Shown piece by piece: positions 119 to 62,600 of a DNA stretch of 64,000 bases. Within the stretch, counting starts at the first letter, position 1; each line of letters starts with the position of its first letter. The position numbers and the translations under genes were made by a program. Under the pieces are notes generated by a model. The model ran no database searches. It had not been told where the DNA came from and worked only from the letters and a program-made list of their open reading frames with translations. Source of the stretch: Deinococcales bacterium (GTDB lineage: Bacteria > Deinococcota > Deinococci > Deinococcales > JAAFIG01); contig JANNVX010000014.1 in the NCBI GenBank assembly GCA_031414595.1, positions 1 through 64,000 of the forward strand, written 5' to 3'.

Positions 119-376
119 TTATTTCCGATAACGTCTATTATAAACTCGAGAACCACGAAGACGAATTCGACGAATTAAAGCCCCAACTTTGTTATTCACC
201 AAACGAGGTTTCAAACGAACGTACTGCACAACATCTTTTAACTCGAGAATGAGTTCTTGGCTATACAAAAGCGTAAATTCTTGATTCCTCCAAGCCCGAA
301 GTATCAAACCACAAACACCATTTCGTTTTAGCAAAGCACTAACAAAAACATTGGTGTCTAATACAACACGAATCAT
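119..376 (-). CDS. PIN-domain (VapC-like) toxin, apparently C-terminally truncated
   Basis: N-terminal RVVLDTNVFVSALL motif. Only 85 aa; the DPDD/TGD C-terminal motifs are missing. Confidence 0.7.
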   Translation of the reverse strand: MIRVVLDTNVFVSALLKRNGVCGLILRAWRNQEFTLLYSQELILELKDVVQYVRLKPRLVNNKVGALIRRIRLRGSRVYNRRYRK

Positions 377-606
377 TTTTTGCGATTTGTCCGTACTGCT
401 CGTTGTGCTTCGAGTGCCAAATCATCGGCTTGGCTTTCGGTCAAATCATCGTTTAACCCATCATCTGAAAAGATTAAATCCCAGTCTTTATCTTCTTGGC
501 TTAAAAGCGCCAGAGCGCGGTCTACGACTTCGGCTCGAGACAACTGGTATTTTTGTTCCAAGTATTTGACATTCTGAATGCCATATTCTGTCAGTTCGAT
601 AGTCAT
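373..606 (-). CDS. Putative antitoxin (RHH-like) of the PIN toxin
   Basis: 77 aa, SRAEVVDRAL motif, acidic tail, 4-nt overlap upstream of the PIN gene. Confidence 0.6.
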   Translation of the reverse strand: MTIELTEYGIQNVKYLEQKYQLSRAEVVDRALALLSQEDKDWDLIFSDDGLNDDLTESQADDLALEAQRAVRTNRKK

Positions 607-893
607 ACCAAAAGTGTAACACCATCAAAACAGTATGGCAATTGTCTCAACAGTGCCGAGACAATCAAATTGTCGCTACAGTGTAGCAACAATCTTTTCA
701 TCTGGATAAAGCTCATAAAAACTTATGGCTCGAGTGAATTCATCAGAAAGACTCCGCGAAACCCCTGCCTGTCTTGACCCTACAGCAGCACCTTCGGGCT
801 TGGGTCGCTTTAGGCATGGGGAGGTAAGGAGTCCAGCCGTAGGCTGCAAACAGTGCCGAAGGTACTGCGAAAAGCCACTTAGCCGAACTCTGC

Positions 894-1280
894 TTATGTT
901 TCATAACGTTTTAAGTAATTTGGGCTTGCCACACGAAGTTTATCCTCAGCAATTTGACGCAACACCTTGACCGAACCATTTGGTACAACTCCACTACGAA
1001 TCTGACTCGAGAGAAGCGTATTTAAGCCCAGCACTTGTGCATCTAAGGCGACTCGAGAAGTTGGCATTTCTATTTCGGTCTCGAGCAAATCTGCCAATGC
1101 TACCGCTTCGGCTTGCAAAAACCCTTCCTCGAGAGTTGAGCGCTCGAGCATCGAAAGCGCATTCATAGCAACCAGAGTACGGAATTTAAGCCGAGCATCC
1201 GCAATCGTTGGCAGGATTTCCGTCTCGAGAAATTCACGCACCGCCGTAGCAAGTTCAGGGTTATTAGGGCGTGACTGCAT
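894..1280 (-). CDS. DUF6285-like protein
   Basis: Start MQSRP..ELATAVREFL and end KLRVASPNYL; lies downstream of an APH-family gene. Confidence 0.65.
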   Translation of the reverse strand: MQSRPNNPELATAVREFLETEILPTIADARLKFRTLVAMNALSMLERSTLEEGFLQAEAVALADLLETEIEMPTSRVALDAQVLGLNTLLSSQIRSGVVPNGSVKVLRQIAEDKLRVASPNYLKRYET

Positions 1281-1282
1281 AC

Positions 1283-2263
1283 TTACTCATCCTCCAATAA
1301 ATACAAAATCTCGAGTTCCATTTCGCTACTTAAACGCCCCAGTACCGCCAATTCAACACTTCGTTCAAGACCGTCCAAATGGCGTTTGGCTTGGGTCAGG
1401 GCGGCAACTGCCCATTTGACGTTGCCCATGATTTCCCAGTAATGCAGGTCAGACAAAGAAATGTTTTGGTTGGTTAAGGTATTGTAATGACTTAAATACG
1501 GCTCGAGTTCGCCAATGCCGCCCAAATGCAAATGGTCTTGCCCAAAGCGCCAAGCCCGAATTAAAGTCCAGGCTAAATCCTCACATGGGTCGCCCAAGTG
1601 GGCAAATTCCCAGTCCAGCACGGCAGTTAGACCATTTGGCGAAAGCATTAAATTGCCAATTCTAAAGTCGCCATGCAGCAGCATTTCGCCATGACATGTT
1701 GGTTCATGGGTTTTAAGCCAGTGCAGCGCCAATTCAATGGTTGGATGTGGTTCGTGTACACCGTCAAGTTCAGCATACAACCTTGCAATACTGGCTTTCG
1801 CGCCTGTACCACTGCCCGAATTGGGCAAAAACTCGAGACCCACAGGGTTAGTGGCATGGATTTTGGAGAGTTCTTCTGCCATCCGCTTTGGCAATTCGGC
1901 TCGAGCAGGCGCAAATTCTGGGCGGCTGACCACCCGCCGTCCAACCGCTTCACCGCGCACCCGTTCGGAAATAAAGGCTTCACGCCCTAGGATATCTGGG
2001 AGGTACAGCACCGGTTTTGGGACAGTCACACCAGCCGCAAACGCTGCTTTGATTACCCTAAATTCTTGTTCTAGGGTCAGCTGCTCGAGGTTCATCGCGC
2101 CGCCACCAGCCCGACGCATAATCAGTTCTAAGATCTGACCGTTTTGCTCGAGGTCAAGTAACCATGCTTCTTTGCTTGCGCCGCCAGCCAGCAGTTGTAA
2201 CCTAAGAATACTCGAGTTAGGAAAGAACGGCTCGAGCCGCACCGCTAGGGTTTCGGGGGTCAT
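1283..2263 (-). CDS. Phosphotransferase (APH / acyl-CoA dehydrogenase-associated) family protein
   Basis: GGASKE, HGDFRIGN and LDWEFAHLGDP motifs. Confidence 0.9.
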   Translation of the reverse strand: MTPETLAVRLEPFFPNSSILRLQLLAGGASKEAWLLDLEQNGQILELIMRRAGGGAMNLEQLTLEQEFRVIKAAFAAGVTVPKPVLYLPDILGREAFISERVRGEAVGRRVVSRPEFAPARAELPKRMAEELSKIHATNPVGLEFLPNSGSGTGAKASIARLYAELDGVHEPHPTIELALHWLKTHEPTCHGEMLLHGDFRIGNLMLSPNGLTAVLDWEFAHLGDPCEDLAWTLIRAWRFGQDHLHLGGIGELEPYLSHYNTLTNQNISLSDLHYWEIMGNVKWAVAALTQAKRHLDGLERSVELAVLGRLSSEMELEILYLLEDE

Positions 2264-2370
2264 GATGGACTTAGTTTAACTCGATTTATGCAAAAGATTC
2301 TGTTGTTTTATTGCTGCTACGGCGTTACGGGGCTGTTTGAAGCTCAAGGTAAATCATTTGCATTCCCGCA

Positions 2371-45249: not shown

Positions 45250-45257
45250 GGAATAAT

Positions 45258-45959
45258 ATGAAAAAATGGATTGTAATTACCGCTTTAATTGTAGGAACAG
45301 CTTTTGCCTTAGCTCAAAGTAATGGTTTAGCTTTATTCAACAAAGTTCGAGCTATACATGGGGATGCAGCTCTGACTGGACTCAAAACACTCCGAATTAC
45401 AAGTAATGTAGAAAATATTGACTCGGTAGGAAAGGTATCAATCCTTGCAACCCAAGTCGCAATTTACGATTTTGAAAATATGCGTTACAAATTGTTGGTC
45501 AGCACAGGAAATCAAGCTATAGACGGGTATCGAATAACTTCAAATGACTCAACTCAATGGACTCCGAAGGGCATCAAAGCAATCCCAGAAAGTCAAGCAA
45601 ACATCCTGCGGTATACATTTGTTCAAGGTATCCTACCTTTACGCCTCAATCCACAAACATGGACTTCAATCAATCAGACTTCTGGTACTATCGCAGGTTT
45701 GAACGGGGACATATTAACGTTGCAAAGTGCATCACAACGTACTTCATTACTTGTAAATAATGATGGTGAAATTCAGGCACAACGTTTTACCGTAGGCGAT
45801 CAATTTGAGACTGTCTTTGGGGAGTATCAAGTTATTTCAGGAATTCGCTTTGCAACTCGAGAACGATTACTGAGAAACGGGAATTTTGCCATTAGATTAT
45901 CGCATACCAAAATTAATGTTAATCCTTCACTCAATGCTACAGATTTTATTTTGCCGTAA
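45258..45959 (+). CDS. Exported protein, possibly LolA-like/lipoprotein-sorting fold
   Basis: Signal peptide; HGDAAL..LKTL...YQVISGIRF...INVNPSL..TDF pattern. Confidence 0.5.
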   Translation: MKKWIVITALIVGTAFALAQSNGLALFNKVRAIHGDAALTGLKTLRITSNVENIDSVGKVSILATQVAIYDFENMRYKLLVSTGNQAIDGYRITSNDSTQWTPKGIKAIPESQANILRYTFVQGILPLRLNPQTWTSINQTSGTIAGLNGDILTLQSASQRTSLLVNNDGEIQAQRFTVGDQFETVFGEYQVISGIRFATRERLLRNGNFAIRLSHTKINVNPSLNATDFILP

Positions 45960-46590
45960 GAGTTTACTGCTCTAATTGACGGTCTGACTCAGCTTTTCCG
46001 ACTGGTCATTCCAAACACAAAGGGTGGGGCTAGTTTACCCATTTCCTTAAGGTCTGCTTCGATTTCTTCGCGCTGATTGGTTTAGCGTTTAATGCCACTG
46101 GCTTGTAGCACCAATTTGGCATTTAAGTAAGACATAAATTCTCTTTAATCTAATCCCACCGCACAACTGCTTGACCCGTTCCAAATCACTTGTGAAATCA
46201 AGCAACCAATTGTCCATAATAGCTTTCTTCTTTGCCTAGCTTGAATTGGATGTGATGGATTTACGTTATTTATCATAGGTTAGTTGCGAGATTGAGTTCA
46301 CTACAGAGGAATTTATATTGCATTTATAGCCAAATTATATCTTTTTTATGATTTGGCTAATTTCAGTATATTCACTTGAAGCATAGTAAAGTTTACCGCA
46401 CAGTCACATTGAAATCAGCAATTTACTCATGTTCTTGAATCTAATTTCCTCCGCGCCGTTCCCTGTGTACTCACAAGGCAGCAGATTTGATTGGTTTTGG
46501 ACAAATTCTCAAAAGTGAGCGCACCGTAATATGACCCTCGAGATAATCATACATATCTCGAGTCCAAAAAACGCTTCCCGCCTTGCTTTA

Positions 46591-46911
46591 TCACTTCGTT
46601 GTACTCTTTTGACGTTTAGGTGGTAAATGATTTGAAGAAGGTTGTGCCAATAAATCAGATGGCTCAAGACCCATCTTTCGAGCTACTGTGAACAATCGAA
46701 GCAAAGTAGGATTAAACCGCCAGACCTGTTTACTCTCGAGTTGCTGATACCAATTCAGTCCAATGCCCAGTTGCTCGGCTGCCTTTTCTTGTGTCCAACC
46801 CAATTCCAATCTGCGTTGCCGAATGCGACTTTGAATCAATCGCAAGTATTCTGCATCTCGAGAATCTAATTCTCGTAGGAATTCTGTCAGTGCAGTTGAG
46901 CGTTGCGGCAC
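46591..46911 (-). CDS. XRE-family HTH regulator
   Basis: IRQRRLELGWTQEKAAEQLGI...YQQLE...FNPTL. Confidence 0.85.
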   Translation of the reverse strand: MPQRSTALTEFLRELDSRDAEYLRLIQSRIRQRRLELGWTQEKAAEQLGIGLNWYQQLESKQVWRFNPTLLRLFTVARKMGLEPSDLLAQPSSNHLPPKRQKSTTK

Positions 46912-46945
46912 ATTGTTACAATTCGCTTTGCCATCCTCTTAGACA

Positions 46946-46963
46946 ACCCTGTTCAAACAGGGT
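46946..46963. promoter_or_regulatory. Inverted repeat, candidate XRE operator
   Basis: ACCCTGTT-CA-AACAGGGT between the divergent XRE and CSLREA genes. Confidence 0.5.
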
Positions 46964-47045
46964 ATACTAACTTAACCATGACCAGCCAAAGCGTATGTAA
47001 CAGTAATTGGCTTGGGTCAATGAATCGCTAACAAGGTGAAGGGGT

Positions 47046-49140: not shown

Positions 49141-49584
49141 ATGCAAGCATTTATTCCCACAAGACCAGCACCCGCTCCACCAAGAGTATCACTGCTTGGA
49201 CTAAAAGCCACAACCATTTTAGAGGTTGGTGAAGCAGTCGAAAACGGTTTTGCCACAAGCCTTGTCAAGCGGTTTGCTTCGCATATCAATGCTTCGTTGC
49301 AAGATACACTCAAACTGCTGGATATAAGCAAACGCACTTTTCACCAATACCAACGCCATAAAAAGCCTCTGAGCCGAAGTGTAAGTATCAATGTGCTTCT
49401 CTTAGCCCAAATCACAGAGGCAGCCGAGCAGTATTTTGAAGATAAAACCAATGCCCATGCTTGGCTTGCCACACCTCGAACTACTTTTGGAGGCACGACA
49501 CCTCTTCAGTTCAGTCTGCTGCCCAATGGGGCTGAATACGTTAGAGCCGTGTTGAACAAACTCGAGCATGGGGTTGTTACGTGA
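49141..49584 (+). CDS. Xre/MbcA/ParS-type antitoxin (no RES toxin seen)
   Basis: ISKRTF...LS...FED...AWLATP...FGGTTPL...LEHGV. Confidence 0.82.
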   Translation: MQAFIPTRPAPAPPRVSLLGLKATTILEVGEAVENGFATSLVKRFASHINASLQDTLKLLDISKRTFHQYQRHKKPLSRSVSINVLLLAQITEAAEQYFEDKTNAHAWLATPRTTFGGTTPLQFSLLPNGAEYVRAVLNKLEHGVVT

Positions 49585-49724
49585 AATTTGTTTCTGCAAC
49601 GCGTTTTCAAATAGAAGTAAGCTCAACAATGGCAACTCGGGAAGCATGGATGTCCGAGCAACCCTTTTGGAGTGTCACAGTATAGCCCTAACGAAAAGTT
49701 GGGCTTTACCTGTTGAATCATTGC

Positions 49725-50132
49725 CTAAGCGTCTTCCTCATCTCTAAGCTCTCGAGTGAATATGTTGGATTCGCAATCAATTGGATGAAGACCTATGAAT
49801 TCTGCATAATCAATGTCGTTCTTTTCAAGGTTTTGGTGTTCGTTTTTATGGACTCCATTTAATCCTTCATCCAACATCCGAGCCAAATCCTCGACTTTCC
49901 CGCCCCGCTCCTTGAGAAGACGACAAAATTCTTGCCTGCCGATTGATTTTACCAAATCATCCCTATCAAAGAGCATCGCTGCGTATAATCTTGGTTCTGG
50001 CATAAAGGTTTTGTCGTGACTTGAGAATGCAATCAGGTCATAGTTAAGGTCACTTCTTTCACGAATCGCCACAAGACGCTTCCCGTACAGGTAAAAATGT
50101 GTGTTTTTCGGTAACATTGTTGCCATCCTCAT
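49725..50132 (-). CDS. Hypothetical protein
   Basis: Open frame; no motif recognised. Confidence 0.45.
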   Translation of the reverse strand: MRMATMLPKNTHFYLYGKRLVAIRERSDLNYDLIAFSSHDKTFMPEPRLYAAMLFDRDDLVKSIGRQEFCRLLKERGGKVEDLARMLDEGLNGVHKNEHQNLEKNDIDYAEFIGLHPIDCESNIFTRELRDEEDA

Positions 50133-50298
50133 GCACTTGTAGAAAAGAACCTTGCAGCACCACCACAACCAAATCCCAACGACCACCAATGCTCAAAAAT
50201 CACGATTATGACTACTCAAGTAGGAAACGATACTATTGAGGTCATGCTGTGATGATTGATTTCAAACCAAAAGTAAATCATGAAACCACAAATAATCA

Positions 50299-50688
50299 CT
50301 ACCTACCACGGTATCCAAAAACAAAAGCTGGAACTGGCTTGCTCATCGTCTCAAAGTCGGCTTTGACCTGTTGCCTATGATTGGTCTGACGGGTGCTACC
50401 AGTGGGTTGCAATTGGTCTATCCAAAGTTCCAAAGCATCTTCTGGTGAGTCTTCGTAAACCTCGAGTATTTTAGGTTCGGTCGGTTTGATGCTATCCCAA
50501 TGGATGTACCGATGTAAGCGTTGTAAATGCTGTTCTGGACTTTGACTCGAGGCAATCAGTCCAAGCATGTGTGATTCCTCGAGCATGATTGAACCTGCTT
50601 CTTCGCTTCTTAGAAGTTGCAGTAATTTACTGGTGTAGTCACGCCAGACTGTGTTGACTTCACGTTTTTGACGGTTTCTTTGGCTCAT
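50299..50688 (-). CDS. Hypothetical protein
   Basis: AGGAG RBS before MSQRNRQ; last gene of a minus-strand operon. Confidence 0.55.
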   Translation of the reverse strand: MSQRNRQKREVNTVWRDYTSKLLQLLRSEEAGSIMLEESHMLGLIASSQSPEQHLQRLHRYIHWDSIKPTEPKILEVYEDSPEDALELWIDQLQPTGSTRQTNHRQQVKADFETMSKPVPAFVFGYRGR

Positions 50689-50741
50689 ATGATTTACTCC
50701 TTTTACACATCTTTTGCTTGTAGTTGCTTTTATTTGAGAAA

Positions 50742-51086
50742 TTATCCAAACTTCCTTTGAACCAAACGCCAGCACAAAGTGACCATCAGACCAGCGAATA
50801 GAATCACTGCCCAACTTGGTAATTGCAGAATCACCGCCAAGCTGTATGAGTAAACCCCAGCACAAAAGGTTAAAGACCAGACCAATGGAATTTTGGCAAA
50901 TAATTGTAGAAACGCATCAAGATTATGCCCATAGTGCTTCTCGAGCAAGAATAGGATGATGGCAAAGACCATCAGGCTCGAGACAAGACAAAGCCCAATT
51001 GAGGCATTGACAGTCACGAGTAATCTTGTTGTCAAACCTCCAGCCAGAACTGCAAAAACAAGCAACTCGAGGTGAACCCTTTTCAT
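50742..51086 (-). CDS. Small membrane protein
   Basis: About four hydrophobic segments; ATGA overlap. Confidence 0.55.
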   Translation of the reverse strand: MKRVHLELLVFAVLAGGLTTRLLVTVNASIGLCLVSSLMVFAIILFLLEKHYGHNLDAFLQLFAKIPLVWSLTFCAGVYSYSLAVILQLPSWAVILFAGLMVTLCWRLVQRKFG

Positions 51087-51436
51087 GGTGTCTCCAAGTT
51101 CGCCTTGCCAAAAAACCGAGTATTCATTTGTTCTCGTAACCGATGATTCTCAAGGGTGAGTTTACCAAGTAAGCGCTCGAGTAGGATTTCTTGGGCTTTT
51201 GATCGCTCGAGTTGTTTTTGTAGATTCAAATTCTCGGTCTCGAGTAAACCAGATTGTTGTTCTGAACTAATAAAAGCATCATTACCAAAGCGTTCATATA
51301 AAGCTCGCCAAGAAAATAAGGTTGAAGCTAGGATTTTATGTTCTCGAGCCACAGCACTAGGTCGTTTGTGTTGTTCAATGACTTCCTTGACCATTCGCAA
51401 CTTAAATTCGGGGGTGTATAACTTTCGGTTTTTCAT
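51083..51436 (-). CDS. HTH_Tnp_1 (IS3 OrfA-like) DNA-binding protein
   Basis: RKLYTPEFKLRMV...VAREHKI..STLFSW...LERLLGKLTLEN. Confidence 0.75.
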   Translation of the reverse strand: MKNRKLYTPEFKLRMVKEVIEQHKRPSAVAREHKILASTLFSWRALYERFGNDAFISSEQQSGLLETENLNLQKQLERSKAQEILLERLLGKLTLENHRLREQMNTRFFGKANLETP

Positions 51437-51903
51437 GGTCTAGTCCTTACATTAAATGTAATCGTGTGAATCACGGTATCTTTTGTATCTCGAGGAAGTT
51501 CAGTAAGCTCTAATTGATGCTCGTTATTTAGGGTAAAAGCTATGGTGATTCGGCTTTTGGTTAAAGTCCATCCATCACTATTTACAGCACTTGATTCAAG
51601 AACTTGTAAAAAAGTGGTTAGAGCTTTCTCAAAGGTCGTCATAAATTGGGGGATTGGTGTTCCAAAATCATTAACAGTAAAACTTTGGCTATCCACTGAA
51701 AATTCAATGTGTACAAGTTCTTCCTTGGTGGTTACGCTGGTTGCAAGGTTTAGTTCGCTTGCTTTTCGGGTTTTGCTTGCTTTATCGAGATAGAACGCCC
51801 ATGTCACTTGGGTGATCTGAATTCTTGTGCCTAAAAGGTTATAGGTGTGCGCTATATTGAAGGTGCTTTGTACCGCACCAAGATAATCAATGGGCTGGTT
51901 CAT
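51433..51903 (-). CDS. Hypothetical protein
   Basis: ATGA-coupled within the operon. Confidence 0.55.
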   Translation of the reverse strand: MNQPIDYLGAVQSTFNIAHTYNLLGTRIQITQVTWAFYLDKASKTRKASELNLATSVTTKEELVHIEFSVDSQSFTVNDFGTPIPQFMTTFEKALTTFLQVLESSAVNSDGWTLTKSRITIAFTLNNEHQLELTELPRDTKDTVIHTITFNVRTRP

Positions 51904-52619
51904 TCTCGTGTCCCTAAGCCTAACTCGAGACCATCATCCAAAAGATGGTTTTCATGCTCGTTAGTTAAATTTTCCTCGAGAATAACTTTGCGTTTCATGG
52001 GTGGAATCCATTTCTTCCAATGCTCTGGGATTTCTAATCGCATTGGCTTGAGATTTTGAGCAATTAAGAAACCATGCTCGAGAACCCCAGTCATGTGTAG
52101 ATACCGAGCATCTTCGACCAAATTCAGTAAATCGAGGGTGGTTTTAGCACTGACCACAAATGGTTCTATTTTTTTGTTGTCTGGTGGGTAAACTCGCAGC
52201 AATACTAATTTCTCAGCTCGGTCTAAACGGAGGACTTTGCCAGCCGCACTCCAGAAGGTATCAGCACCATTCAAATCAACGGCATTCTCGAGGGGCATGA
52301 CTCGAGCCAAGGTGAGGTTGGCTAAGCGTTGGTCTTTGAAGGTCTTGCCGTACAACGTGGCTCTCCAAGTACCAGAGAGTTGGATTGAAGACTGTTCAGG
52401 GTGGGTGTTGCGCCACCTCGAGAAAACCCTTGGGTGAACTCGAGCGATGTAAGTACCATTTTTTGGATTGCCAAGTTGAATGGTGACTCGAGTGTTTTGC
52501 TGGTCATCTTGGATGGTGGCATTGGCTTGGATGAAGAAATGGTGGTTATAGTCGGTGTGAATACCTTTTGGCATTGGCTGTGGTGTGGTTACAAGAGTTT
52601 CAAAAACGTCATTTGACAT
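51900..52619 (-). CDS. Hypothetical protein, paralogue of 52652..53272
   Basis: Shared WSA.G...D...LV..RVYP...PF..SA...H..G.L...LEIP..W..W; GGAG RBS. Confidence 0.65.
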   Translation of the reverse strand: MSNDVFETLVTTPQPMPKGIHTDYNHHFFIQANATIQDDQQNTRVTIQLGNPKNGTYIARVHPRVFSRWRNTHPEQSSIQLSGTWRATLYGKTFKDQRLANLTLARVMPLENAVDLNGADTFWSAAGKVLRLDRAEKLVLLRVYPPDNKKIEPFVVSAKTTLDLLNLVEDARYLHMTGVLEHGFLIAQNLKPMRLEIPEHWKKWIPPMKRKVILEENLTNEHENHLLDDGLELGLGTRE

Positions 52620-52651
52620 GCTATCTCCTATTCACGGGTTTCTTATCGTCT

Positions 52652-53272
52652 TTAGTTGGCTTTCCAGTTGCGCCAACGATCAGGAATTTCTAAATCTTGA
52701 TTGGTTAATACTTCTGCAACAAGCTTTTTGCCACTTAAGTTCCCTATCAAATGGACAAACTCATTTTTTCTTGGCAACTCTTGTTCTACTTTCAAACTGG
52801 CTGAAATCAAAAATGGCGTGGCTCGAGCTTGCTCAGGGTAAACCCGAATCGTGACCAATCGGTGTATTGGGTCACTTTTGGTGATTTGTCCAATAGCACT
52901 CCATCGCGGCTGGTGGGAATCTTCTCGTTCTAACTCGAGGGGTTCAATACGATGTAGGTGAAGTGGTTCAAACAGCACACTATCGTTCAAAGTGCGGAAA
53001 TGAAGCGTACATAACCACCAACGATGACTTGCTGGGTTGAGCCTTAACACATCTGCACTGGCTTTAACCCGAAGCATGGTGCTATCGGAGAGTTGGATGT
53101 CCATATTGTTACCGCTCCCTGAATCGTAAATACAAGCCGCCACTCGCATAAAAGCATGGCATCCATCAGGAATAGGAAAATCAAAAGTGAGTTTTCGTGG
53201 GGTAGTGGTCAATGGTCTGCCTCGAGCTTGGATTTTGTGACTGGTCATAAGAAATGCCACCTCTGTACACAT
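52652..53272 (-). CDS. Hypothetical protein, paralogue of 51900..52619
   Basis: Same shared C-terminal motif set. Confidence 0.65.
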   Translation of the reverse strand: MCTEVAFLMTSHKIQARGRPLTTTPRKLTFDFPIPDGCHAFMRVAACIYDSGSGNNMDIQLSDSTMLRVKASADVLRLNPASHRWWLCTLHFRTLNDSVLFEPLHLHRIEPLELEREDSHQPRWSAIGQITKSDPIHRLVTIRVYPEQARATPFLISASLKVEQELPRKNEFVHLIGNLSGKKLVAEVLTNQDLEIPDRWRNWKAN

Positions 53273-53838: not shown

Positions 53839-54798
53839 GTGTTTCATATGATTGAAACTGCCAAAAACCCACACTGGGCAATCCACCCTCAAATCCAAAA
53901 TGGTGAGTTGTTTGAATCTTGGATTGTGCGGTTGAGTGCCGAAAATGGCTTTCGCCTGCGCGAAGTGATACAGCAATTAGAACTCAAAAATGTCTTTTGT
54001 TCTAAAAACAATGTTGAGATCAAAGCCGTAAGAAAATTGTCGGATGCAACTGGGATACTTCAATATCGAATCCTCGAATCCCATCTTGGGTGGCTTCAAA
54101 ATCACTCTGATCTTGCCTATGCAAAAACATTTACCCTTTGGGGGCGTAGCCCATCGGACACGATACAGCATTTTAAGTTTTGCCCAGACTGTTTTGCTAA
54201 TCAAGACAAGCCACACATACTGCTTGACTGGGCATTTGAAATCACTCAGTTCTGCACGGTACATCAACGACCTTTACTCGAGCGTTGTCCAAAATGCCGC
54301 GAGCCACTTCAGTTTAGTTTGCTTTTCAACAAAACAATACAACCCGAAATCTGCTCTAATTGCAGCACAAAAATGAAAATCCATGCTCGGAAACACAGCA
54401 TTGATTTCAAATTTGGTCTCGAGCTACAAAGACAAATCTTGAGCCTCCGAAAACATGACCAAGTATCACCAAAACAATCACGAATTATCCCAGCAAAAAC
54501 GTTTTTATCAATTGTTGAGCGGATATTTTATCGCTTTACCAATTTACCCAACCAGCAAACCTTCTCTAAATTGACTGATCTCTCAGTTATGTTGCTGGAT
54601 GATCGTTTTTCGCAAGCGTACCGAAGAATAAACGCCCTGACCATTTGTGGCTGGCTTTTAGCCGACCCAATAGTACGAATTATTACTCTGCGCCAATTCA
54701 CGCAAAAGTATGTTGAATACTCGACGGCTATTCAAATTATTTCTGTTCTGAATTATGCACAAGCGACATTGCAACCACGTAATGGAACTTACCAATGA
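53839..54798 (+). CDS. tniQ: TniQ target selector
   Basis: HPQIQNGELFESWIVRLSAENG; zinc motifs FCPDC, W...CTVH..PLLERCPKC, CSNC; ATGA overlap with cas5. Confidence 0.92.
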   Translation: MFHMIETAKNPHWAIHPQIQNGELFESWIVRLSAENGFRLREVIQQLELKNVFCSKNNVEIKAVRKLSDATGILQYRILESHLGWLQNHSDLAYAKTFTLWGRSPSDTIQHFKFCPDCFANQDKPHILLDWAFEITQFCTVHQRPLLERCPKCREPLQFSLLFNKTIQPEICSNCSTKMKIHARKHSIDFKFGLELQRQILSLRKHDQVSPKQSRIIPAKTFLSIVERIFYRFTNLPNQQTFSKLTDLSVMLLDDRFSQAYRRINALTICGWLLADPIVRIITLRQFTQKYVEYSTAIQIISVLNYAQATLQPRNGTYQ

Positions 54799-55529
54799 GC
54801 TTATTTGCACTCGAGGTTTGGGGCGATTACGCCTGTTTCACACGTCCTGAAACAAAAGTTGAAAGACTTAGTTACCCTGTGATGACTCCAAAAATTGCTC
54901 GAGCAATTTTTGGAGCGATCTACACCCAGTTTTCTGGGGGTGAAACACCTCACACAACTTTTTTCTGGCAAGTCAGGCGAATCGAAATCCTCAATCCAAT
55001 TGTGTTTATTTCGTTCTCACACAATGAAGTCAAAGGGAGAGCAAGCACTTACAACATTTTGCGCTCAGTTCATCAGCCCGACGCACTTCAACCGCTCATG
55101 GCAGATGGCAATGATGATTCCAGCAAAGAGACTGGGCGCACCCAACGCCAATCAATGATTTTGCGCGAGGTGCGTTATCGGATATTCGCTGAACCAGTGC
55201 TGTACAATCCAAACCAAAGCAATCTGAAGCAAATCACCCACGAATTTGCTCGACGTGCAGCCAAAGGCAAGTGTTTCCATCAGCCTTTTTTGGGATGCCG
55301 TGAATACATAGCATTTTTCCAGCCAGTTCCGCCCACATTTGGCGTTGGCGCACCGATTTTTGAAGATATTGGTTGGATGATCTACGATACGTTTGATCTA
55401 TCACAGCCAAGCTCAATCACCATTACACCAAGCATTAGTATCTTCAGGGCGACGATTCAAAACGGTGTTCTCGAGATACCGCCGTATGATAGCAACGAGG
55501 TACGCAAACTAGGACTGGGAGTGATTTGA
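54795..55529 (+). CDS. cas5c: Type I-C Cas5 (Cas5c/Cas5d)
   Basis: WGDYACFTRPETKVERLSYPVMTP, RTQR..ILREVRY and GKCFHQPFLGCRE motifs. Confidence 0.95.
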   Translation: MSLFALEVWGDYACFTRPETKVERLSYPVMTPKIARAIFGAIYTQFSGGETPHTTFFWQVRRIEILNPIVFISFSHNEVKGRASTYNILRSVHQPDALQPLMADGNDDSSKETGRTQRQSMILREVRYRIFAEPVLYNPNQSNLKQITHEFARRAAKGKCFHQPFLGCREYIAFFQPVPPTFGVGAPIFEDIGWMIYDTFDLSQPSSITITPSISIFRATIQNGVLEIPPYDSNEVRKLGLGVI

Positions 55530-57343
55530 TGCTCGAGGCTCTGATCGAATATGCTCACCGAAAACAATTGGTTCTCGAGCCTGGTTTTGCTGGCAGGCGT
55601 ATTCATTGGTTAATAAATCTTGACTCTAAAGGACAGGTTCAATCCGTTTCTTTTGCAGATGAATCCAAGCGACGAGCGAAGTTGTTTCCATGCTGTCCAG
55701 ACCTGCAACAGCCCCAACTGATCAGGCTGCCACATGTACTTAAACAGCTTGGAATACTATCAACACGAGCAGCCCACTTTTTAATGGATTCATGTTGTCG
55801 TGTGGTGCTTTATCCAGATAACGATCAGTTGGAACAACATAAGACTTTTCTAAACCTAATCCAACTAGCAAGCCAAGAAGTTAGGATATTACGACCAGTT
55901 GCAAAAATGCTTTCAAAGCAAAAGGAAATTGGTCGAGTACATCAAGCCCTCATTCAATTGAAAGCCACAAAAACCGACAAAGTATCGTTTTCGGTGGATG
56001 GAGTGGTCATACTTGAGGATACAACGTGGCATGATTGGTGGCGAAGATTTTATATAACCACAAGCTCAAAGCAAAATTCAGATCGTATGATCAGTCTGGT
56101 TTCAGGAGAAGTTATTTCGCCTGCCAGAACACATCCAGCGCTTAAATCCTTGGTCGAAAAAAAAGTAACTTTTGGAGCGGCAGTAGTGGCTGTGCATAAA
56201 ACTGCCTTTACCTCATATGGGCTAAAACAAGCCGAACACGCCGCCATGTCAGGAGCATCTGCCGCTGCCTATCATGCAGCTCTGGAAGATTTATTGAGAC
56301 AAACTAGGATGGTTCATGGTACGAAAGCGGTGTATTGGTACAACCAAGAAATTCCACTACAATCCGACCCACTGGCGCTGATGTTGCGCGATGAACGCAT
56401 AGATAACATCAACTACCGAAAACAGCTTGAGGATATTCTTTCACAAGCTCGAAAAGATGATTCTCGAGATGTTGCTTGCCATATTGCTGTGTTGCGTGAA
56501 AATGAAAATCGGGTCAGGATTTCATTGTACAAAACGCTGCGATTGAGTGAAGTGGCGGCTGGACTTATTAAATGGCTCGAGGATACTTCAATTGATGGTT
56601 TGGCAGGTACTGGTTTCGTAGTTGATCTACCCAGCGAATTTGCTGGTATGTTTCGTCAACGAGTTGGGGGAAAAAGCGATAAGGCACTTGACTTTCAACC
56701 ACTACTGATTGTGTTGTACCAGCAGATGCTCAACCCCACTCTACCCATTGCGATGGCTCTGGTTGATTATTCACTTAAATCGGTCATTACCAGCTTTGTA
56801 AAAGGCAAATTTCAGGCAGCATTTGCAACCAAGGCAGATTTACCATTGCGACAAAATTTGGTGATTTACATGGGTATTTTGAAAGCATTTTGCCGTCACT
56901 CAGGTGATCGAGACCTATTGCAACAACTGAATCCTAATCATCCTAATTCACACTATCAAACAGGTCGGCTCACTGCGATGCTCGAGCGTATTGATGGGTT
57001 GAATAATCCTCCACATGTTGAACTCAAAAACCAAAGGTTGTTTTTGCAAATTATGACGACACCGAACAATATCCTGCAAGAAAAAATGGCTTCCAGTCAA
57101 CGAAAGCTCAAGCGACTTGAAAGAACTCGACGATGGTTCAGCCTATACTTACAAAAAGAAATGAATACGATTTGGGAGAATCTTGATGCTAAGGTTCGGA
57201 GTAATAGCTCAGTAAAACGCCAATGCTTATTCCTATTGGGTTACTTTCAACAAACCATTTCTCAATTGATTGAACCTGTGCAAAACGATGATTTTTACAA
57301 TTTGGAGTCGAGAACCTTTAAGGAGCAACATGAAACCGATTGA
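55526..57343 (+). CDS. cas8c: Type I-C large subunit Cas8c (Csd1), divergent
   Basis: MLEALIEYA...EPGF...W.I.LD..G, LVSGE...ARTHP, AFTSYGLKQ, YQTGRL.A.LE, Q..FLLGYFQQ. Confidence 0.88.
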   Translation: MMLEALIEYAHRKQLVLEPGFAGRRIHWLINLDSKGQVQSVSFADESKRRAKLFPCCPDLQQPQLIRLPHVLKQLGILSTRAAHFLMDSCCRVVLYPDNDQLEQHKTFLNLIQLASQEVRILRPVAKMLSKQKEIGRVHQALIQLKATKTDKVSFSVDGVVILEDTTWHDWWRRFYITTSSKQNSDRMISLVSGEVISPARTHPALKSLVEKKVTFGAAVVAVHKTAFTSYGLKQAEHAAMSGASAAAYHAALEDLLRQTRMVHGTKAVYWYNQEIPLQSDPLALMLRDERIDNINYRKQLEDILSQARKDDSRDVACHIAVLRENENRVRISLYKTLRLSEVAAGLIKWLEDTSIDGLAGTGFVVDLPSEFAGMFRQRVGGKSDKALDFQPLLIVLYQQMLNPTLPIAMALVDYSLKSVITSFVKGKFQAAFATKADLPLRQNLVIYMGILKAFCRHSGDRDLLQQLNPNHPNSHYQTGRLTAMLERIDGLNNPPHVELKNQRLFLQIMTTPNNILQEKMASSQRKLKRLERTRRWFSLYLQKEMNTIWENLDAKVRSNSSVKRQCLFLLGYFQQTISQLIEPVQNDDFYNLESRTFKEQHETD

Positions 57344-58295
57344 AAATCGCTACGAATTTCTACTCATTTTTGATTGCGAAAATGGCAATCCCAATGGTGA
57401 TCCCGACGCAGAAAACCTTCCAAGAATAGACTCCCAAGACGGTCATGGATTGGTCTCTCCAGAATCAATCAAACGAAAGATTCGTGACCGTATTGCCCTG
57501 AATGGTATAGAAATCTTTATCCAACACCAAACCAATCTCAATCGTGCGATTTTTGCGGCGCGTGAACAGAGTAATACCTTAAAAGACAAATCCACCAAGA
57601 TAACATTACAAAACGCCGCTGCAATTATGTGTAAACGATTTTATGATGTTCGGACTTTCGGTGGGGTAATGACTACAGGTGTCAATTCAGGTCAATTGAC
57701 TGGACCTGTGCAGATTACATTAGCTCGCAGTGTTGACCCAGTTCATATCATGGATTGGGGAATTACTAGAGTGGCTGTTGCCGAAACTGTCCAAGGAGCA
57801 AAAACCCTGGCTGACTACGAACAATGGGAATCCGAACAAAATGCTTCAGATTTAAGAACTATGGGACGGAAAAGCCTGATTCCATATGGATTATTCGTAG
57901 CCAAAGGCTGCATCAGTGCGTTTGATGCGGAAAGAACAGGGTTTTCAGAAGCTGACCTCGAATTGCTCTGCGAAAGCATGTTAGACATGTTTGAACACAG
58001 TCGCAGTGCCAGTCGTGGTTTGATGACCACAAGGCGCTTGGTAATTTTTAAGCATATAGGATCATCCAAAGACCCCAAAGTGCGCCTCAAACAAGCTAAA
58101 CTAGGGCGTATTCCAGCACAAAATTTGCTCGAGTTAGGCAGAATTGTTCGCATTTCTCGCGTCAATAAAGATGCTTTTCCTCGAGCCTATCACGATTACG
58201 ACGTGGTTGTGGATACCAGTGCATTACCAGAAACCATTGAAGTGCTGGATTTAGATTTGTGGGATGAAGAAAAGTTTCGCTCGGCTTGGGTTTAA
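57330..58295 (+). CDS. cas7c: Type I-C Cas7 (Csd2)
   Basis: NRYEF..FDCENGNPNGDPDAENLPRID, KRKIRD, FYDVRTFG.VM, GPVQ, TMGRK..IPYGL, TGFSE.DL; AAGGAG RBS. Confidence 0.96.
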   Translation: MKPIENRYEFLLIFDCENGNPNGDPDAENLPRIDSQDGHGLVSPESIKRKIRDRIALNGIEIFIQHQTNLNRAIFAAREQSNTLKDKSTKITLQNAAAIMCKRFYDVRTFGGVMTTGVNSGQLTGPVQITLARSVDPVHIMDWGITRVAVAETVQGAKTLADYEQWESEQNASDLRTMGRKSLIPYGLFVAKGCISAFDAERTGFSEADLELLCESMLDMFEHSRSASRGLMTTRRLVIFKHIGSSKDPKVRLKQAKLGRIPAQNLLELGRIVRISRVNKDAFPRAYHDYDVVVDTSALPETIEVLDLDLWDEEKFRSAWV

Positions 58296-58467
58296 GCGAA
58301 CCCTTAGTGGCACTAAAATCACCTATAGTTCGCGGAAACCAAATTTCGTCTATGACGTGATTCTTCTGTGCGATATTGAGTAGTGATCAAAAAATTAATG
58401 TTGAATTATTGGGTTCGCAGAATGTATTCCTTTTTGACTTTGTACTATGAAAAGATATACATTTACA
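58296..58467 (+). promoter_or_regulatory. Type I-C CRISPR leader
   Basis: GCGAACC (58296)...GTTCGC (58328) inverted motif, a second GGTTCGC (~58412), AT-rich; TTGACT-N18-TACATT just before repeat 1. Confidence 0.7.
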
Positions 58468-58645
58468 GTCTCAATGGCATCTAGCCGTCGAGACGCTTGA
58501 AACCAAACCCGACGAAAGGATGCACATTACGATAATCCGTCTCATGGGCATCTAGCCGTCGAGACACTTGAAACATTGCCATCTAAAGTCCAATCACATA
58601 CATTGGCATGTCTCTATAGCTTTTAGACATTGCGATGCTCGAGAT
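58468..58645 (+). CRISPR. Mini CRISPR array: 2 intact plus 1 degenerate 36-bp repeats, two 35-bp spacers
   Basis: R1 58468-58503 GTCTCAATGGCATCTAGCCGTCGAGACGCTTGAAAC; R2 58539-58574; R3 58610-58645 (24/36 identical to R1). Hairpin GTCTC..GAGAC and TTGAAAC 3' end. Confidence 0.9.
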
Positions 58646-58750: not shown

Positions 58751-58808
58751 GCCTCAACGGTACTTAGCCATCGAGACGCTTGAAACTAACCAATTGACCT
58801 ATATGCCC
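58751..58808 (+). CRISPR. Delocalised atypical repeat plus tRNA-targeting homing spacer
   Basis: Repeat GCCTCAACGGTACTTAGCCATCGAGACGCTTGAAAC (58751-58786). Spacer TAACCAATTGACCTATATGCCC matches the minus strand of 59086-59107 at 18/22. Confidence 0.88.
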
Positions 58809-58892
58809 GAATTTATTTTTTCCAAAGCCTCTTGTTCCAGATATGCGGAGGTCAAAGCCAAAAGGTTTGCTTGAAAGGAGTATTGGGATCAC

Positions 58893-59038
58893 TGACACGG
58901 TAAACGATAAGAAATGATATAGAATTTAACTCGAGTTCGTTAAACACAATGTTTATTTAGGAAAGTTCAATCAGTGCCACGGTAAACGATATTGACATTC
59001 ATAAAAATAATTACTGACAAAGTAAACGATAATTCACA
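58893..59038 (-). repeat. tRNA-proximal transposon end with TnsB-binding sites
   Basis: TGACACGGTAAACGATAA (58893), TGCCACGGTAAACGATAT (58975), degenerate copy (58993), TGACAAAGTAAACGATAA (59015), ending AATTCACA. Inverted relative to the sites at the other end. Confidence 0.92.
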
Positions 59039-59043
59039 CCTAT
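59039..59043 (+). repeat. Target-site duplication, right copy (CCTAT)
   Basis: Identical to 10215-10219. Confidence 0.93.
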
Positions 59044-59072
59044 TTGCCAAATGTGCATTTTACGGTTAATCT
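59044..59072 (+). promoter_or_regulatory. Candidate tRNA promoter
   Basis: TTGCCA-N17-TAATCT, 13 bp upstream of the tRNA. Confidence 0.6.
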
Positions 59073-59085
59073 AGGGGTCGTGCGA

Positions 59086-59162
59086 GGGTCTATAGCTCAA
59101 TCGGTTAGAGCGGAGGTCTCATAAACCTTAGGTTCGGGGTTCAAGTCCCCGTGGACCCACCA
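59086..59162 (+). tRNA. tRNA with CAT anticodon (Ile2 or elongator Met)
   Basis: Acceptor stem GGGTCTA/TGGACCC, anticodon arm GAGGT-CTCATAA-ACCTT, GGTTCAAGTCC T-arm, encoded CCA. G1-C72 pairing argues against initiator fMet. Confidence 0.95.
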
Positions 59163-59678: not shown

Positions 59679-62600
59679 TTACATATCCCAATGCACACGG
59701 CTGGTATCTTGGGCTTTTTCAATCACTAAACGGATTGGTAAGCGGTCTGCGAGGGCTGGGACGTGAGTTATTACGCCAACCATGCGCCCTTGGGTTTGCA
59801 GGTTCTCTAAGGTGTTGGCGACCATTTCCAAGGCATCTGCGTCGAGTGTGCCAAAGCCCTCATCTAAAAAAAGTGCGCCTAGGGCTTGGCTTCCAGCTAG
59901 ATAATCGGACAGGGATAAAGCCAGTGCAAGCGAAGCAATAAAACTTTCGCCACCCGAAAGGGTTTTTACGCCTCGAGATTCTAAGCCGTTCCAAGCATCC
60001 CGAACATGAAACTCTGCATCTATCAGTTCGAGCGTATAGCGTTCTCGAGTGATACCCTGCAAGGTTTTGGTGGCACGTTGCAGCAGTTGTTGTTGGACTC
60101 CTGCCAGTAAATAGTCTTGGAATTCATTGCCTTTCATATCTAGGGCTAGGGCAGCGTAAGTGTCAAAGCGTTTTTCTAGCCCGTTTTGCTCACGGCGTAG
60201 GTCTTTAGCTTGTTTAATCTGTTGTTCTAACTGGGTTTTTTCGGCTTCGAGTTGCCCAAGTGTGCGGCGCAAGGTTTGGTTTTGTTGTTCTAAATTTTGC
60301 TGTTGCTGCTCGAGTTCTTCGGGTGGTGTCTCGGGTTTTCTGCCGCCCAATTCTTCAGCAATTTGGTTTTGGCGTTGTTGCACCAACAATTGATTTTGCA
60401 GGTGTTTTTGGATGCTTTCCTCGAGTGCCAAAATTTCGGCTTCGGGTAGGCTTTGGCTTAGCGCGGTTTGGCTGTCTAAAAAACCCAATTCTGCGAGTTT
60501 GGCTTGGGTGGTTTCTTGGGCTTGCATAGCTTCTTGCTGGGCGGTATTTAAGTTGTTGCGTGTGGCTTCTAAGGCACTTTTTAGGCTGGCGGTCTGGGTT
60601 TTAGCGTTTGTGTACGTTTCTCTGGCTTGGCGCTCATTCTGCTCGAGTTGCGAGCGCTTGGTTTTGAGGTTTTCAATCTCGGTTTTGAGGTTTTCATTTG
60701 CGCCAGCTTGCCGTAATTCATAAGCAAAAGCCCCAAGCAGTTTTTGTTTAGCGGCTTGTAAGGCAGCATTGGCGTTGCTGTGTACGCCCAGCCGAGCCTC
60801 GAGTTTAAGCACCAAGGTTTTGCGTTCGCTTTCGATTTCTAGGCGTTGCTGCTCGAGCCGAAGGCTTTCTTGCAAGGCATTTTTTTGTTCTGCCTGACGG
60901 CTTTCTAAAAGCGAAACGGCTGCCTCGAGACGGCTTTGTTGGCTGGCAAGTTGCGCTTTTGTTTTACTCAGTTGCTCAGATGCACTTTTTTCGGCTTGCT
61001 GCAATTGTGTTTTGTTTTGCTGCAACTGCCTAACACGGTTTTCAAAATCGGTGGCTTGGCTTAATTCATTGGCTAAACCAGAAAGTAATTCGGCTCGAGC
61101 CGTTTGTAAGGCACTTTTGGGGTCGGTGGAATCTGAAAGCACATCTTGCCAGCCTTGCAATAGTTGCTCGAGTTCTTCGCTTGTCTCACGCAAGGTTTTT
61201 TCAACTCGAGCCACTTCTTTAGCTGCACTCATTTTATTTTGTTCATGGTTTTTAGCAGCTTCTTTTAAGCGAGTGAATTCATCACGTAAACGGCTGACCT
61301 CGAGCAATCCAACTTGCAGGGCTTTTTCGGACGTTGGCACATTGGCATTAAAATCTGGCAGGGTTTTAAGTGGTTCGCCACACACAGGGCAAGGGTCGCC
61401 GATATTTAAGTCGCGTACCAATTCAGCCGCGATATTCTCACGTTTTGCGGCTTCGAGTTTTGCCTCGAGTTCTTTTTGAGTGGCTGCCGCGATTTTCCCA
61501 TCGCTCAGAACCGTGTTTTGCATGGTTTTTGTTTCTTCAAGTTGGGCTTCCCATTGTAGCAGTTCATCCCTTGCCGTCTCGAGTTCGGTTTTGGTGTTGC
61601 CAATTTGTTTGACAATTCGGACATGGGTTTTTAATTCGTTCTGGACAGTCATTATTCTCGTCCAAGCCTGTTCACTAAAACTTGGTGCGAGCGGACTGGC
61701 ATCTTCAAGCTGCCCACCAAGTTCGCTTAAACGTTTTAATTTGGGTTTTAACGCCTCGAGTCCACGCAGTTCTTCTTCTAAAACGGGGATTTGCAGGGCG
61801 GCTTCTCGAGCCGTTTCTAGTGCGTGCATGTCCTCGATTTGTCTTTGCTGCACATCTTCAAGAACTTTTTGTTGCTCGAGTAGCGCGGTCTGGGCTTCTT
61901 TAAGACGAAGACCAACCGTTCCAAGTTCGGCGCGGCGGCGTTCAAGTTCTTTGAGTTGTTTTTGACTTCGTTCCAAAAGTGGTAATTGGGCGCTTAGTCG
62001 CTCGAGTTCACTCCAAGCAGTTTCAGTGAACGGTTCGCCCTCGGCAGTATCGCTCAGGCTTCCACCCAAGGCTTCCAATCGTTCTAAACGCGGCACAAGC
62101 GCCGTTAAAGCCACCACCTTATCCTCGAGATGTTTCGTGCCAAGGGCGGCTTCTCGAGCCGTTTCTAAAGCCTCTAAATGCTGTTGCTCGAGCCTGTGCG
62201 CCGACTCAAAACGCTGCTGGGCGGTTTCAGCTTCCCGTTTAATTTGACCAAGCCGCGCTTCAAGTTTTATGTTTTGTTCAATCAATGGCAAAATACTCGC
62301 CACGCGCCGTGCAGCTTTAGCTTGGGTTTGTAGTGCTTCAATTTTTGCTTGGGCAGCCTCTAAACCCTGCCACTCGAGTTTTACATTTTGCAGCGCGGTT
62401 TCTAAACGCCAGATGTCCCTTGCCTCAATCAGTGCCGTCTTTAACCGCTCGAGTTGCTGACCTGTCTGCTCGAGTTCCCTTTGTTTTTGCAGTTGTGTGG
62501 TTTCTAGCGTCTCGAGCGCTTCTGGTGTGGCAGTGGAGAGCGATTCTAACTGAATTTGCAATGCCTCAGATTTAGTTTTGGCTTCTCGAGCCAGTTCACC

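Follow-up and report, generated by a model that had tools for sequence, protein, structure and literature searches.

Type I-C CRISPR-associated transposons (CASTs) are known from nine metagenomic systems (Rybarski et al. 2021, bioRxiv 10.1101/2021.08.16.456562). In these Tn7-like elements TniQ lies beside TnsABC, and neither a CRISPR array nor an atypical self-targeting spacer was found in them, nor a tRNA or a known attachment site (bioRxiv 10.1101/2021.08.16.456562). Because neither an array, nor a homing guide, nor an attachment site was reported there, the mechanism of self-targeting by I-C CASTs was left open. Later papers still present I-C CASTs as computational predictions without a recognisable array. 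No account of a homing guide in an I-C CAST turned up in the literature searched, which excluded subscription-only papers and supplements. Here we describe a 48,819-bp type I-C CAST within a 64,000-nucleotide stretch of DNA from a Deinococcales bacterium (assembly GCA_031414595.1, contig JANNVX010000014.1, positions 1 to 64,000; hereafter the window). The element carries an orphan repeat-guide unit that probably serves RNA-guided homing beside a tRNA-Met gene. What it adds is not a new principle; it supplies parts that are missing from the I-C CASTs described so far.

The gene content resembles that of the metagenomic I-C systems, being Tn7-like with Cas5, Cas7 and Cas8c but no Cas3 or Cas1/2. 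Unlike in those systems, the cas operon begins with tniQ, TnsA and TnsB appear to be fused and TnsC is short (275 aa); moreover, a two-spacer array and an orphan homing unit are found beside a tRNA gene. As far as the systems can be compared by description, the place of TniQ, the array, the homing unit and the tRNA therefore set this architecture apart from theirs.

The candidate homing guide follows an atypical repeat that stands outside the array (Table 1), and it begins immediately after the repeat's terminal GAAAC. Aligned with its protospacer in the tRNA gene, the guide has mismatches at exactly positions 6, 12, 18 and 19. Type I complexes are described as flipping out every sixth position of the CRISPR RNA (crRNA), which is left unpaired (Petassi et al., bioRxiv 10.1101/2020.07.02.184150; I-D CAST literature). 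All 19 guide positions that a Cascade would read can pair, one of them as a G:T wobble, in that the crRNA G at position 19 faces a T of the target strand. Judged from the letters, the guide thus departs from its target at positions that Cascade is not expected to read. The mismatch at position 12 falls on C11 of the tRNA, a conserved letter in the Rfam tRNA consensus, and therefore the guide is not a mere copy of another natural tRNA.

The guide match ends at base 1 of the tRNA, since ARAGORN and Rfam both place the start of the gene at 59086. Beyond this point only 1 of 13 positions agrees with the target, the 13 nt that follow the match in the guide unit being T-rich (GAATTTATTTTTT). The tRNA was typed as a non-initiator methionine tRNA by ARAGORN and may alternatively be a lysidine-type isoleucine tRNA. 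No promoter for it was called by the promoter scanner. A TTGCCA hexamer adjoins the target-site duplication near the tRNA.

The protospacer is flanked by CTC, a near variant of the type I-C protospacer-adjacent motif (PAM) TTC. In published accounts CTC is the second-best PAM of the Bacillus halodurans I-C system, is active as a PAM in the Xanthomonas albilineans system and is 95-99.5% protective in that of Legionella pneumophila. At this locus CTC is simply the opposite-strand reading of nt 23-25 of the tRNA D-stem.

The match between guide and tRNA exceeds chance. When both strands of the 64-kb window were searched with the 22-mer, the tRNA site was the sole match with six or fewer mismatches. 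The probability of four or fewer mismatches is 3.6e-8 per position, corresponding to a chance expectation of about 0.005 over the whole window. As a control, every 22-mer directly 3' of a GAAAC in the window (180 in all) was compared with the 300 bp that flank the element on either side; the guide alone came within four mismatches of the flanks, two 22-mers reached six, and the others had 7-11. That positions 6, 12 and 18 should all be among four mismatches in 22 has a probability of 19/7315 = 0.0026.

The insertion lies where such a guide would be expected to direct it. From the end of the match it is 42 bp to the target-site duplication, and from the PAM 64 bp, the duplication being on the PAM-distal side; as in CASTs, the guide therefore matches a site at a PAM-distal distance from a transposon end. 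In ShCAST the spacing from the PAM is 60-66 bp, which the 64 bp found here resembles. The element sits 5' of the tRNA gene, which is intact. Both transposon ends have the build of CAST ends, with inverted TGT...ACA termini, several TnsB repeats and a 5-bp duplication, and 23 of the 30 terminal bases are common to the two ends. Relative to a 23-nt consensus, the tnsAB-proximal repeats starting at 10291, 10322 and 10354 and the terminal one have 6, 4, 7 and 9 mismatches, respectively.

This anatomy, with its match, register, PAM, ends, duplication and distances, can be read directly from the DNA. An earlier note, made from the letters alone, had already given the spacer, the protospacer, the four mismatches and the CTC PAM, had let the match stop at tRNA base 1 and had placed the duplication on the PAM-distal side, at 42 bp from the match and 64 bp from the PAM; each of these coordinates and letters was confirmed. 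Its assignment of the element to the type I-C CASTs is borne out by Cas5c, Cas8c and Cas7c, by TniQ and TnsC, and by the ends. Taken together, the register, the pairing, a usable PAM and a PAM-distal duplication constitute what we regard as strong circumstantial evidence for RNA-guided homing.

Table 1. Features of the transposon and its tRNA target, with positions in the window.
Feature	Positions	Strand	Remarks
Target-site duplication CCTAT, left copy	10215-10219		directly outside the end
Tn7-like type I-C CAST, 48,819 bp	10220-59038
tnsAB-proximal end	10220-10376		terminal TGTGAATT and TnsB-type repeats
Degenerate terminal TnsB-type repeat, tnsAB-proximal end	10226-10248
TnsB-type repeats, tnsAB-proximal, closely spaced	10291-10313, 10322-10344, 10354-10376
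Putative TnsA-TnsB fusion transposase, 837 aa, very divergent	10351-12864	+	sub-threshold Pfam
TnsC/TniB-type AAA+ regulator, 275 aa (short)	12854-13681	+	Pfam TniB E 2.5e-31
Xre-family helix-turn-helix (HTH) protein, 75 aa	53444-53671	+	Pfam HTH_3 E 3e-11; directly 5' of tniQ
TniQ, 319 aa	53839-54798	+	Pfam TniQ E 4.5e-16; PADLOC TniQ models
Cas5c, type I-C pre-crRNA endonuclease	54795-55529	+	Pfam Cas_Cas5d 1e-20; PADLOC Cas5c 9e-42
Cas8c/Csd1	55526-57343	+	Pfam Cas_Csd1 2e-57; PADLOC Cas8c 5e-56; PDB 8g9t Cas8 6e-13
Cas7c/Csd2	57270-58295	+	Pfam Cas7 3e-80; PADLOC Cas7c 4e-83
Mini CRISPR array, two spacers	58468-58645	+	3' of cas7c
Repeat R1	58468-58503	+	folds at -14.9 kcal/mol
Spacer 1, 35 nt	58504-58538	+
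Repeat R2	58539-58574	+	folds at -12.3 kcal/mol
Spacer 2, 35 nt	58575-58609	+
Degenerate terminal repeat R3	58610-58645	+	score reached by 3/2000 shuffles
Atypical repeat R4 of the orphan unit, 36 nt	58751-58786	+	covariance model 53.5 bits
Candidate homing guide, TAACCAATTGACCTATATGCCC	58787-58808	+	22 nt complementary to the tRNA gene, directly 3' of the atypical repeat
CRISPR-proximal, target-proximal end	58888-59038		terminal ...AATTCACA
TnsB-type repeats, CRISPR-proximal, dispersed	58888-58910, 58970-58992, 59010-59032
Target-site duplication CCTAT, right copy	59039-59043		directly outside the end
tRNA, anticodon CAT, 77 nt	59086-59162	+	ARAGORN and Rfam
Protospacer, TAACCGATTGAGCTATAGACCC	59107..59086	-	tRNA nt 1-22, opposite strand
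PAM CTC	59110-59108	-	tRNA nt 23-25 (GAG, conserved D-stem)

The predicted type I-C effectors beside TniQ form a full set, each gene intact. Cas5c, Cas8c and Cas7c were recognised by subtype-specific PADLOC models, by Pfam and by I-C Cascade structures, and there is no Cas6, as befits type I-C. Cas5c matches PDB entry 3kg4 (1e-32) and also Cas5 of the I-C Cascade 8g9t, and Cas7c matches 7kha Cas7 (2e-68) from residue 22 onwards; the true start of cas7c is likely the ATG at 57330, which follows an AGGAG. The C-terminal part of Cas8c is Cas11c-like, residues 469-578 aligning to the Cas11 of 8g9s (E 0.005). No Cas3, Cas1, Cas2, Cas4 or Cas6 was detected among the 50 open reading frames (ORFs) scanned within the element (35 of the 52 with at least 100 aa, plus 15 further ones; 10 of the 52, embedded in longer genes, were left out). 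Among these ORFs the effector genes are accompanied by neither an interference nuclease nor adaptation genes, as in CASTs generally. Likewise, no host Cas3 or host I-C system is visible in the 64-kb window.

The core Tn7 machinery of TnsB, TnsC and TniQ is represented, TnsC and TniQ clearly and TnsB by sub-threshold hits. The best PDB matches of TnsC are VchTnsC (3e-7) and ShTnsC (6e-4). TniQ is located 40 kb from tnsC as the first gene of the cas operon; it is the sole TniQ/TnsD protein found in the element and is without a C-terminal extension of TnsD length. In its AlphaFold model (predicted local distance difference test, pLDDT, 88) the fold best matches the TniQ of a type I-B CAST (8fcu_P), followed by V-K TniQ, the TnsD N-terminus and I-F3 TniQ. 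The 837-aa ORF that we read as a TnsA-TnsB fusion is the weakest identification in the element, because PDB and NCBIfam gave no sequence match. Its Pfam matches come in the correct order (Tn7_TnsA-like_N at residues 76-138, rve at 539-572 and Mu-transpos_C at 677-728), with E values of 1e-3 to 3e-3 that are all below the curated cut-offs. The nearest Atlas clusters contain proteins of about 900 aa with the same three domains (scores 0.95-0.97). For the TnsA part, the Tn7_TnsA-like_N match is weak (E 0.003, below cut-off), and this domain is found in 20-59% of the members of the nearest Atlas clusters. The Xre-family gene directly 5' of tniQ has parallels in I-F3 CASTs, where XRE regulators are described beside the guide and cas operons (Petassi et al., bioRxiv 10.1101/2020.07.02.184150). 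The minus strand holds a second HTH_3 ORF at 46591-46911.

A promoter-like site (58434-58463) precedes the array, and the orphan unit follows the degenerate last repeat after a gap of 105 bp. Repeats R1, R2 and R4 share the 3' end CTTGAAAC and each forms a hairpin, as type I-C repeats do; GAAAC is described as the 3' end of such repeats. R4 differs from R1 by six substitutions (positions 2, 8, 11, 13, 14 and 20), all inside the hairpin, for which the chance probability is (20/36)^6 = 0.03. Its 3' 16 nt, the would-be 5' handle of a crRNA, are the same as in R1. Rfam contained no CRISPR-DR family for the repeat and returned only chance microRNA matches, and the covariance model found no further copies in the window. 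Its best extra match (62500-62531, minus strand; 14.5 bits, E 0.08) lies in sbcC, where a 16-nt stretch agrees with the 3' part of the repeat at 15 of 16 bases. This stretch is probably a by-product of the abundance of CTCGAG in this DNA (see below), because it contains that hexamer. A candidate fifth repeat, made up of an octamer (GCTTGAAA, 58869-58876) and a GCCTC...GAGGT hairpin (58827-58851), was rejected, as 262-278 of 2000 shuffles scored equally and the fold was no better than that of shuffles. Spacers 1 and 2 of the array had no plasmid match and only chance-level phage matches (E 0.4).

We propose the following mechanism. The orphan unit would be transcribed with the two-spacer mini-array or 3' of it, and Cas5c would cleave the atypical repeat, whose intact 3' part (...ACGCTTGAAAC) would stay on the guide as its 5' handle. 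Cas5c, Cas8c with its Cas11c part, and Cas7c would then assemble on the guide RNA. This Cascade would recognise the CTC PAM within the tRNA D-stem and pair with tRNA nt 22 to 1; positions 6, 12 and 18 would be flipped out and need no match, and position 19 would form the G:T wobble. At the PAM-distal end TniQ would recruit TnsC and the TnsA-TnsB fusion, and the element would be inserted upstream of the tRNA, 42-47 bp past the match, with the 5-bp duplication and without damage to the tRNA. We infer transcription, processing, Cascade assembly, bridging by TniQ and the causal link to insertion from the arrangement of the parts.

Several observations weigh against RNA-guided homing by this unit. 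The hairpin of R4 is much weaker than that of R1 (-4.9 against -14.9 kcal/mol), and so processing by Cas5c could be impaired. A repeat 3' of the guide is unsupported, the best score being reached by 262 of 2000 shuffles, and the scan found no terminator 3' of the guide. The target adjoins the end with three dispersed sites, distal to tnsAB, unlike the right end targeted in I-F3 elements. The TnsB part of the transposase is known from sub-threshold Pfam matches and Atlas look-alikes alone. In the I-D CAST, mismatches outside the most PAM-distal segment are reported to abolish transposition, so that pairing over only 22 bp might be too little for a Cascade of normal length to license insertion. 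Finally, the evidence comes from a single element.

Several claims of the earlier note need qualification. It had called the spacer delocalised, which holds in that the unit lies outside the array, although the degenerate last repeat is only 105 bp away, and truncated, which holds for the complementarity but not for the RNA, as no 3' repeat or terminator marks a short transcript. Its inference of RNA-guided homing has strong circumstantial evidence on its side; the statement that selection preserved only the pairing positions rests on one element. The V-K short delocalised guide is a fair analogy, but class 1 precedents also exist (I-F3, I-F3c, I-B4 and IV). The suggestion that the CTC PAM helps to avoid attack by a host Cas3 was unsupported: CTC works in canonical I-C systems and, being a documented secondary I-C PAM, gives no hint of escape from Cas3. 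Sixth-position mismatches are invisible to any Cascade and would give no protection from a canonical one either.

Assuming that homing is RNA-guided, a truly short RNA in a mini-Cascade of about four Cas7 subunits and an RNA of normal length that forms a partial R-loop appear to us almost evenly balanced. The transposon end is 48 bp from guide nt 22 and 35 bp from a would-be nt 35; reported insertion distances are 43-45 bp for an I-F CAST and 75 +/- 6 bp from the start of the PAM for the I-D CAST. The I-D data allow mismatches only in the most distal segment, which argues for the short form, and the lack of a 3'-end signal after the guide argues against it. There is a substantial, if smaller than even, chance that the truncation is merely apparent, the guide being about 35-40 nt long with a distal part that, in a former host, matched the variable sequence 5' of the tRNA. 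Only the conserved 22-nt tRNA part would then still pair, and homing would be RNA-guided without a mini-Cascade. Such a history would account for a match that ends exactly where the conserved tRNA sequence ends and for the missing mark of an RNA end after nt 22, and it agrees with the 35-nt spacers of the array and with the 35 bp from the would-be nt 35, close to the value implied by the I-D reports. It fits poorly with the T-rich 13 nt after the match and their 1/13 agreement with the target, and with the pairing of both the PAM-proximal and the middle segment that the I-D system is reported to require; the 48 bp from nt 22 is near the I-F CAST distance, and other class 1 CASTs are described as having short homing spacers.

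Readings in which the guide has no part in insertion appear less attractive. It is unlikely that TniQ or another protein of the element recognises the tRNA region and that the repeat-guide is a decaying relic. I-B CASTs do home via TnsD without a guide (Rybarski et al., bioRxiv 10.1101/2021.08.16.456562; review PMC11656645), and four mismatches, a weak repeat hairpin and the missing 3' repeat would suit a relic. Yet the element has a single 319-aa TniQ with no TnsD-length extension, its best fold match is a Cascade-bound I-B TniQ, and decay would not be expected to put three of four mismatches at flipped-out positions and spare the 16-nt handle part. We consider it very unlikely that the unit is a CreA-like regulatory guide, with Cascade on the first 22 bp repressing or marking the tRNA gene and playing no role in insertion. 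Partial complementarity, a degenerate repeat and the absence of a nuclease recall the crRNA-like regulators as described, and bound Cascade would cover the transcribed start of the tRNA; this would leave unexplained why a transposon end and duplication lie PAM-distally at a CAST-like distance and why TniQ heads the cas operon, and the target is not toxin-like. A chance match, or a functionless leftover fragment of a tRNA, is scarcely credible: nothing beyond the single instance speaks for it, whereas about 0.005 such matches are expected in the window, the guide is the sole one of 180 GAAAC-adjacent 22-mers within four mismatches, and both the exact repeat register and the periodic mismatch pattern would be coincidences. 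RNA-guided homing by the orphan unit is the explanation that we consider probable.

Close relatives of TniQ and Cas8c all come from metagenome sources. The TniQ family comprised three proteins, including the window's own, in a word-index search; among 1.84 billion representatives HMMER found seven proteins at E<=1e-30 and 14 at E<=1e-10. For Cas8c, the search gave two close relatives with 50% and 41% identity. A scan of genome contigs with the TniQ alignment revealed no sister element, and tblastn of TniQ against plasmids gave distant TniQs only, with at most 27% identity among the best 10 of 40 matches. A scan of genome contigs with the neighbouring NUDIX protein yielded 80 loci, none of which (0/80) contained the protospacer; nor did any hold a tRNA-Met gene or have XthA beside NUDIX, and no empty site emerged. 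In the closest genome (L001; 83.5% nucleotide identity) the synteny differs: a homologue of window positions 2278..371, reversed, directly adjoins the NUDIX gene, with no tRNA there. The window therefore differs from it by an inversion-like rearrangement with one break near the tRNA/NUDIX junction (371-2278; 59186 onward).

Between tnsC and the Xre-tniQ-cas operon the element carries about 40 kb of cargo. Directly after tnsC (13863-15550, plus strand) are a GreA/GreB-C-like ORF, an RNase H ORF and a family-less ORF. A GTPase-associated conflict system follows on the minus strand (15650-25511), consisting of a GAP1-N1/EAD1 protein, DO-GTPase1, DO-GTPase2 and GASH; beside it are a SIR2-EAD1 protein, with PADLOC LmuA/ThsA-like SIR2 matches, and a 940-aa STAND-NTPase/TPR protein. 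The plus-strand region 27187-40256 holds a 3646-aa RHS-repeat polymorphic toxin with PT-HINT and a C-terminal WHH nuclease domain, then a SUKH-1 (SMI1/KNR4) immunity-type ORF and three small family-less ORFs. It is followed (40263-49043, plus strand) by a Big_7 Ig-domain protein, an S8 subtilase, a secretin and a 665-aa Chlamydia-PMP-repeat protein. In the region 49141-53272 we noted an Xre/MbcA/ParS-type antitoxin ORF (49141-49584) and an IS3-type HTH_Tnp_1 ORF (51083-51436); six minus-strand ORFs of this region had no match in Pfam (6/6), PADLOC (6/6) or NCBIfam (four scanned).

The window is also unusual in its hexamer palindromes. CTCGAG has 237 copies in the 64 kb, where 11.9 are expected, a 20-fold excess, at densities per kb of 7.0 in the host flanks, 2.7 inside the transposon and 1.2-2.5 in the central cargo, where it is lowest. 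The excess is 18-29-fold in the three closest genomes (L001, L002 and L003) and at most 5-fold in the other 77 loci. The copies show no extended flanking consensus and use all three codon frames. CTCGAG looks like a lineage-specific highly iterated palindrome, for which we found nothing in the literature searched. Conversely, ATGCAT, AGTACT, AGGCCT and ACTAGT have zero copies in the window against 12-19 expected, which suggests restriction-site avoidance.

Looking forward, the full parts list, comprising the ends, guide unit, PAM, target and distance, makes the question of I-C homing directly testable. The element bears on whether about 22 bp of pairing, in a mini-Cascade or a partial R-loop, lets a class 1 Cascade license transposition, and on the surface to which TniQ docks in a Cascade without Cas6. 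With three cas genes, a putative TnsA-TnsB fusion and a 275-aa TnsC, it is also a compact candidate for guide-directed insertion tools.

Among the known systems, I-F3 elements are similar in that a self-targeting guide lies beside a diverged repeat, at the array or up to about 80-85 nt beyond it (Rybarski et al., bioRxiv 10.1101/2021.08.16.456562). I-F3 guides also tolerate mismatches, some at every sixth position, and the elements share an XRE regulator and the idea of a 'private guide' (bioRxiv 10.1101/2020.07.02.184150). In an I-F3b element this privacy has been shown to depend on the atypical repeat (Petassi et al., bioRxiv 10.1101/2020.07.02.184150); as a speculation by analogy, the atypical repeat or a short R-loop could have a similar effect here. 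Unlike the present guide, those of I-F3 are reported to have their full length, to lie between two atypical repeats and to be matured by Cas6; their targets are protein or ffs genes beside the right end. Here only the upstream atypical repeat, a 22-nt match, no Cas6 and a tnsAB-distal target end were found, and the unit is thus not an I-F3-type homing guide. Closer in guide length are I-F3c, I-B4 and type IV CASTs, for which short homing spacers are described and a mini-Cascade was proposed (Rybarski et al., bioRxiv 10.1101/2021.08.16.456562). They too match over a short stretch of about 20 bp directly 3' of a repeat, in I-F3c at some 64 bp from the transposon end, but they are of other subtypes, their short spacer is said to lie inside the array and to be followed by an atypical repeat, and none is described as targeting a tRNA 5' end.

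In its working the unit also resembles type V-K. The att-guides of V-K are described as following GAAA(G/C) downstream of the effector gene, with a tRNA protospacer further downstream in opposite orientation (bioRxiv 10.1101/2021.02.06.429022), and the truncated repeat-spacer unit or delocalised crRNA was reported by Hsieh and Peters (bioRxiv 10.1101/2021.02.06.429022; review PMC11656645). Like the V-K unit, the guide here comes after the array, matches over a short stretch, is not itself followed by a repeat and points to a tRNA protospacer in opposite orientation beyond the CRISPR-proximal end. A delocalised V-K crRNA was reportedly also described by Saito et al. in 2021. As in V-K, whose spacing is stated relative to the left end, the target adjoins the tnsAB-distal end (bioRxiv 10.1101/2021.02.06.429022). 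Unlike V-K, the present element has a class 1 Cascade instead of Cas12k with a trans-activating CRISPR RNA, and TnsA is apparently present; the repeat is a full 36 nt rather than about 13 nt; the match is of 22 nt with periodic mismatches rather than of 17 nt and mostly perfect; and the insertion lies upstream of the tRNA 5' end. With its full-length repeat and Cascade effector, the unit is therefore V-K-like in its working and not a member of V-K. We tentatively suggest, well short of an even bet, that the element represents an undescribed I-C CAST lineage which joins a class 1 Cascade to V-K-like homing, with a 22-nt guide, a mini-Cascade of about four Cas7 subunits, a tRNA target beyond the CRISPR-proximal left-like end, which lies about 64 bp from the PAM, a short TniB-like TnsC and a TnsA-TnsB fusion. 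If so, it would be a class 1 CAST of six genes, in which homing puts up with mismatches at all the flipped-out positions and drift has reached each of them.

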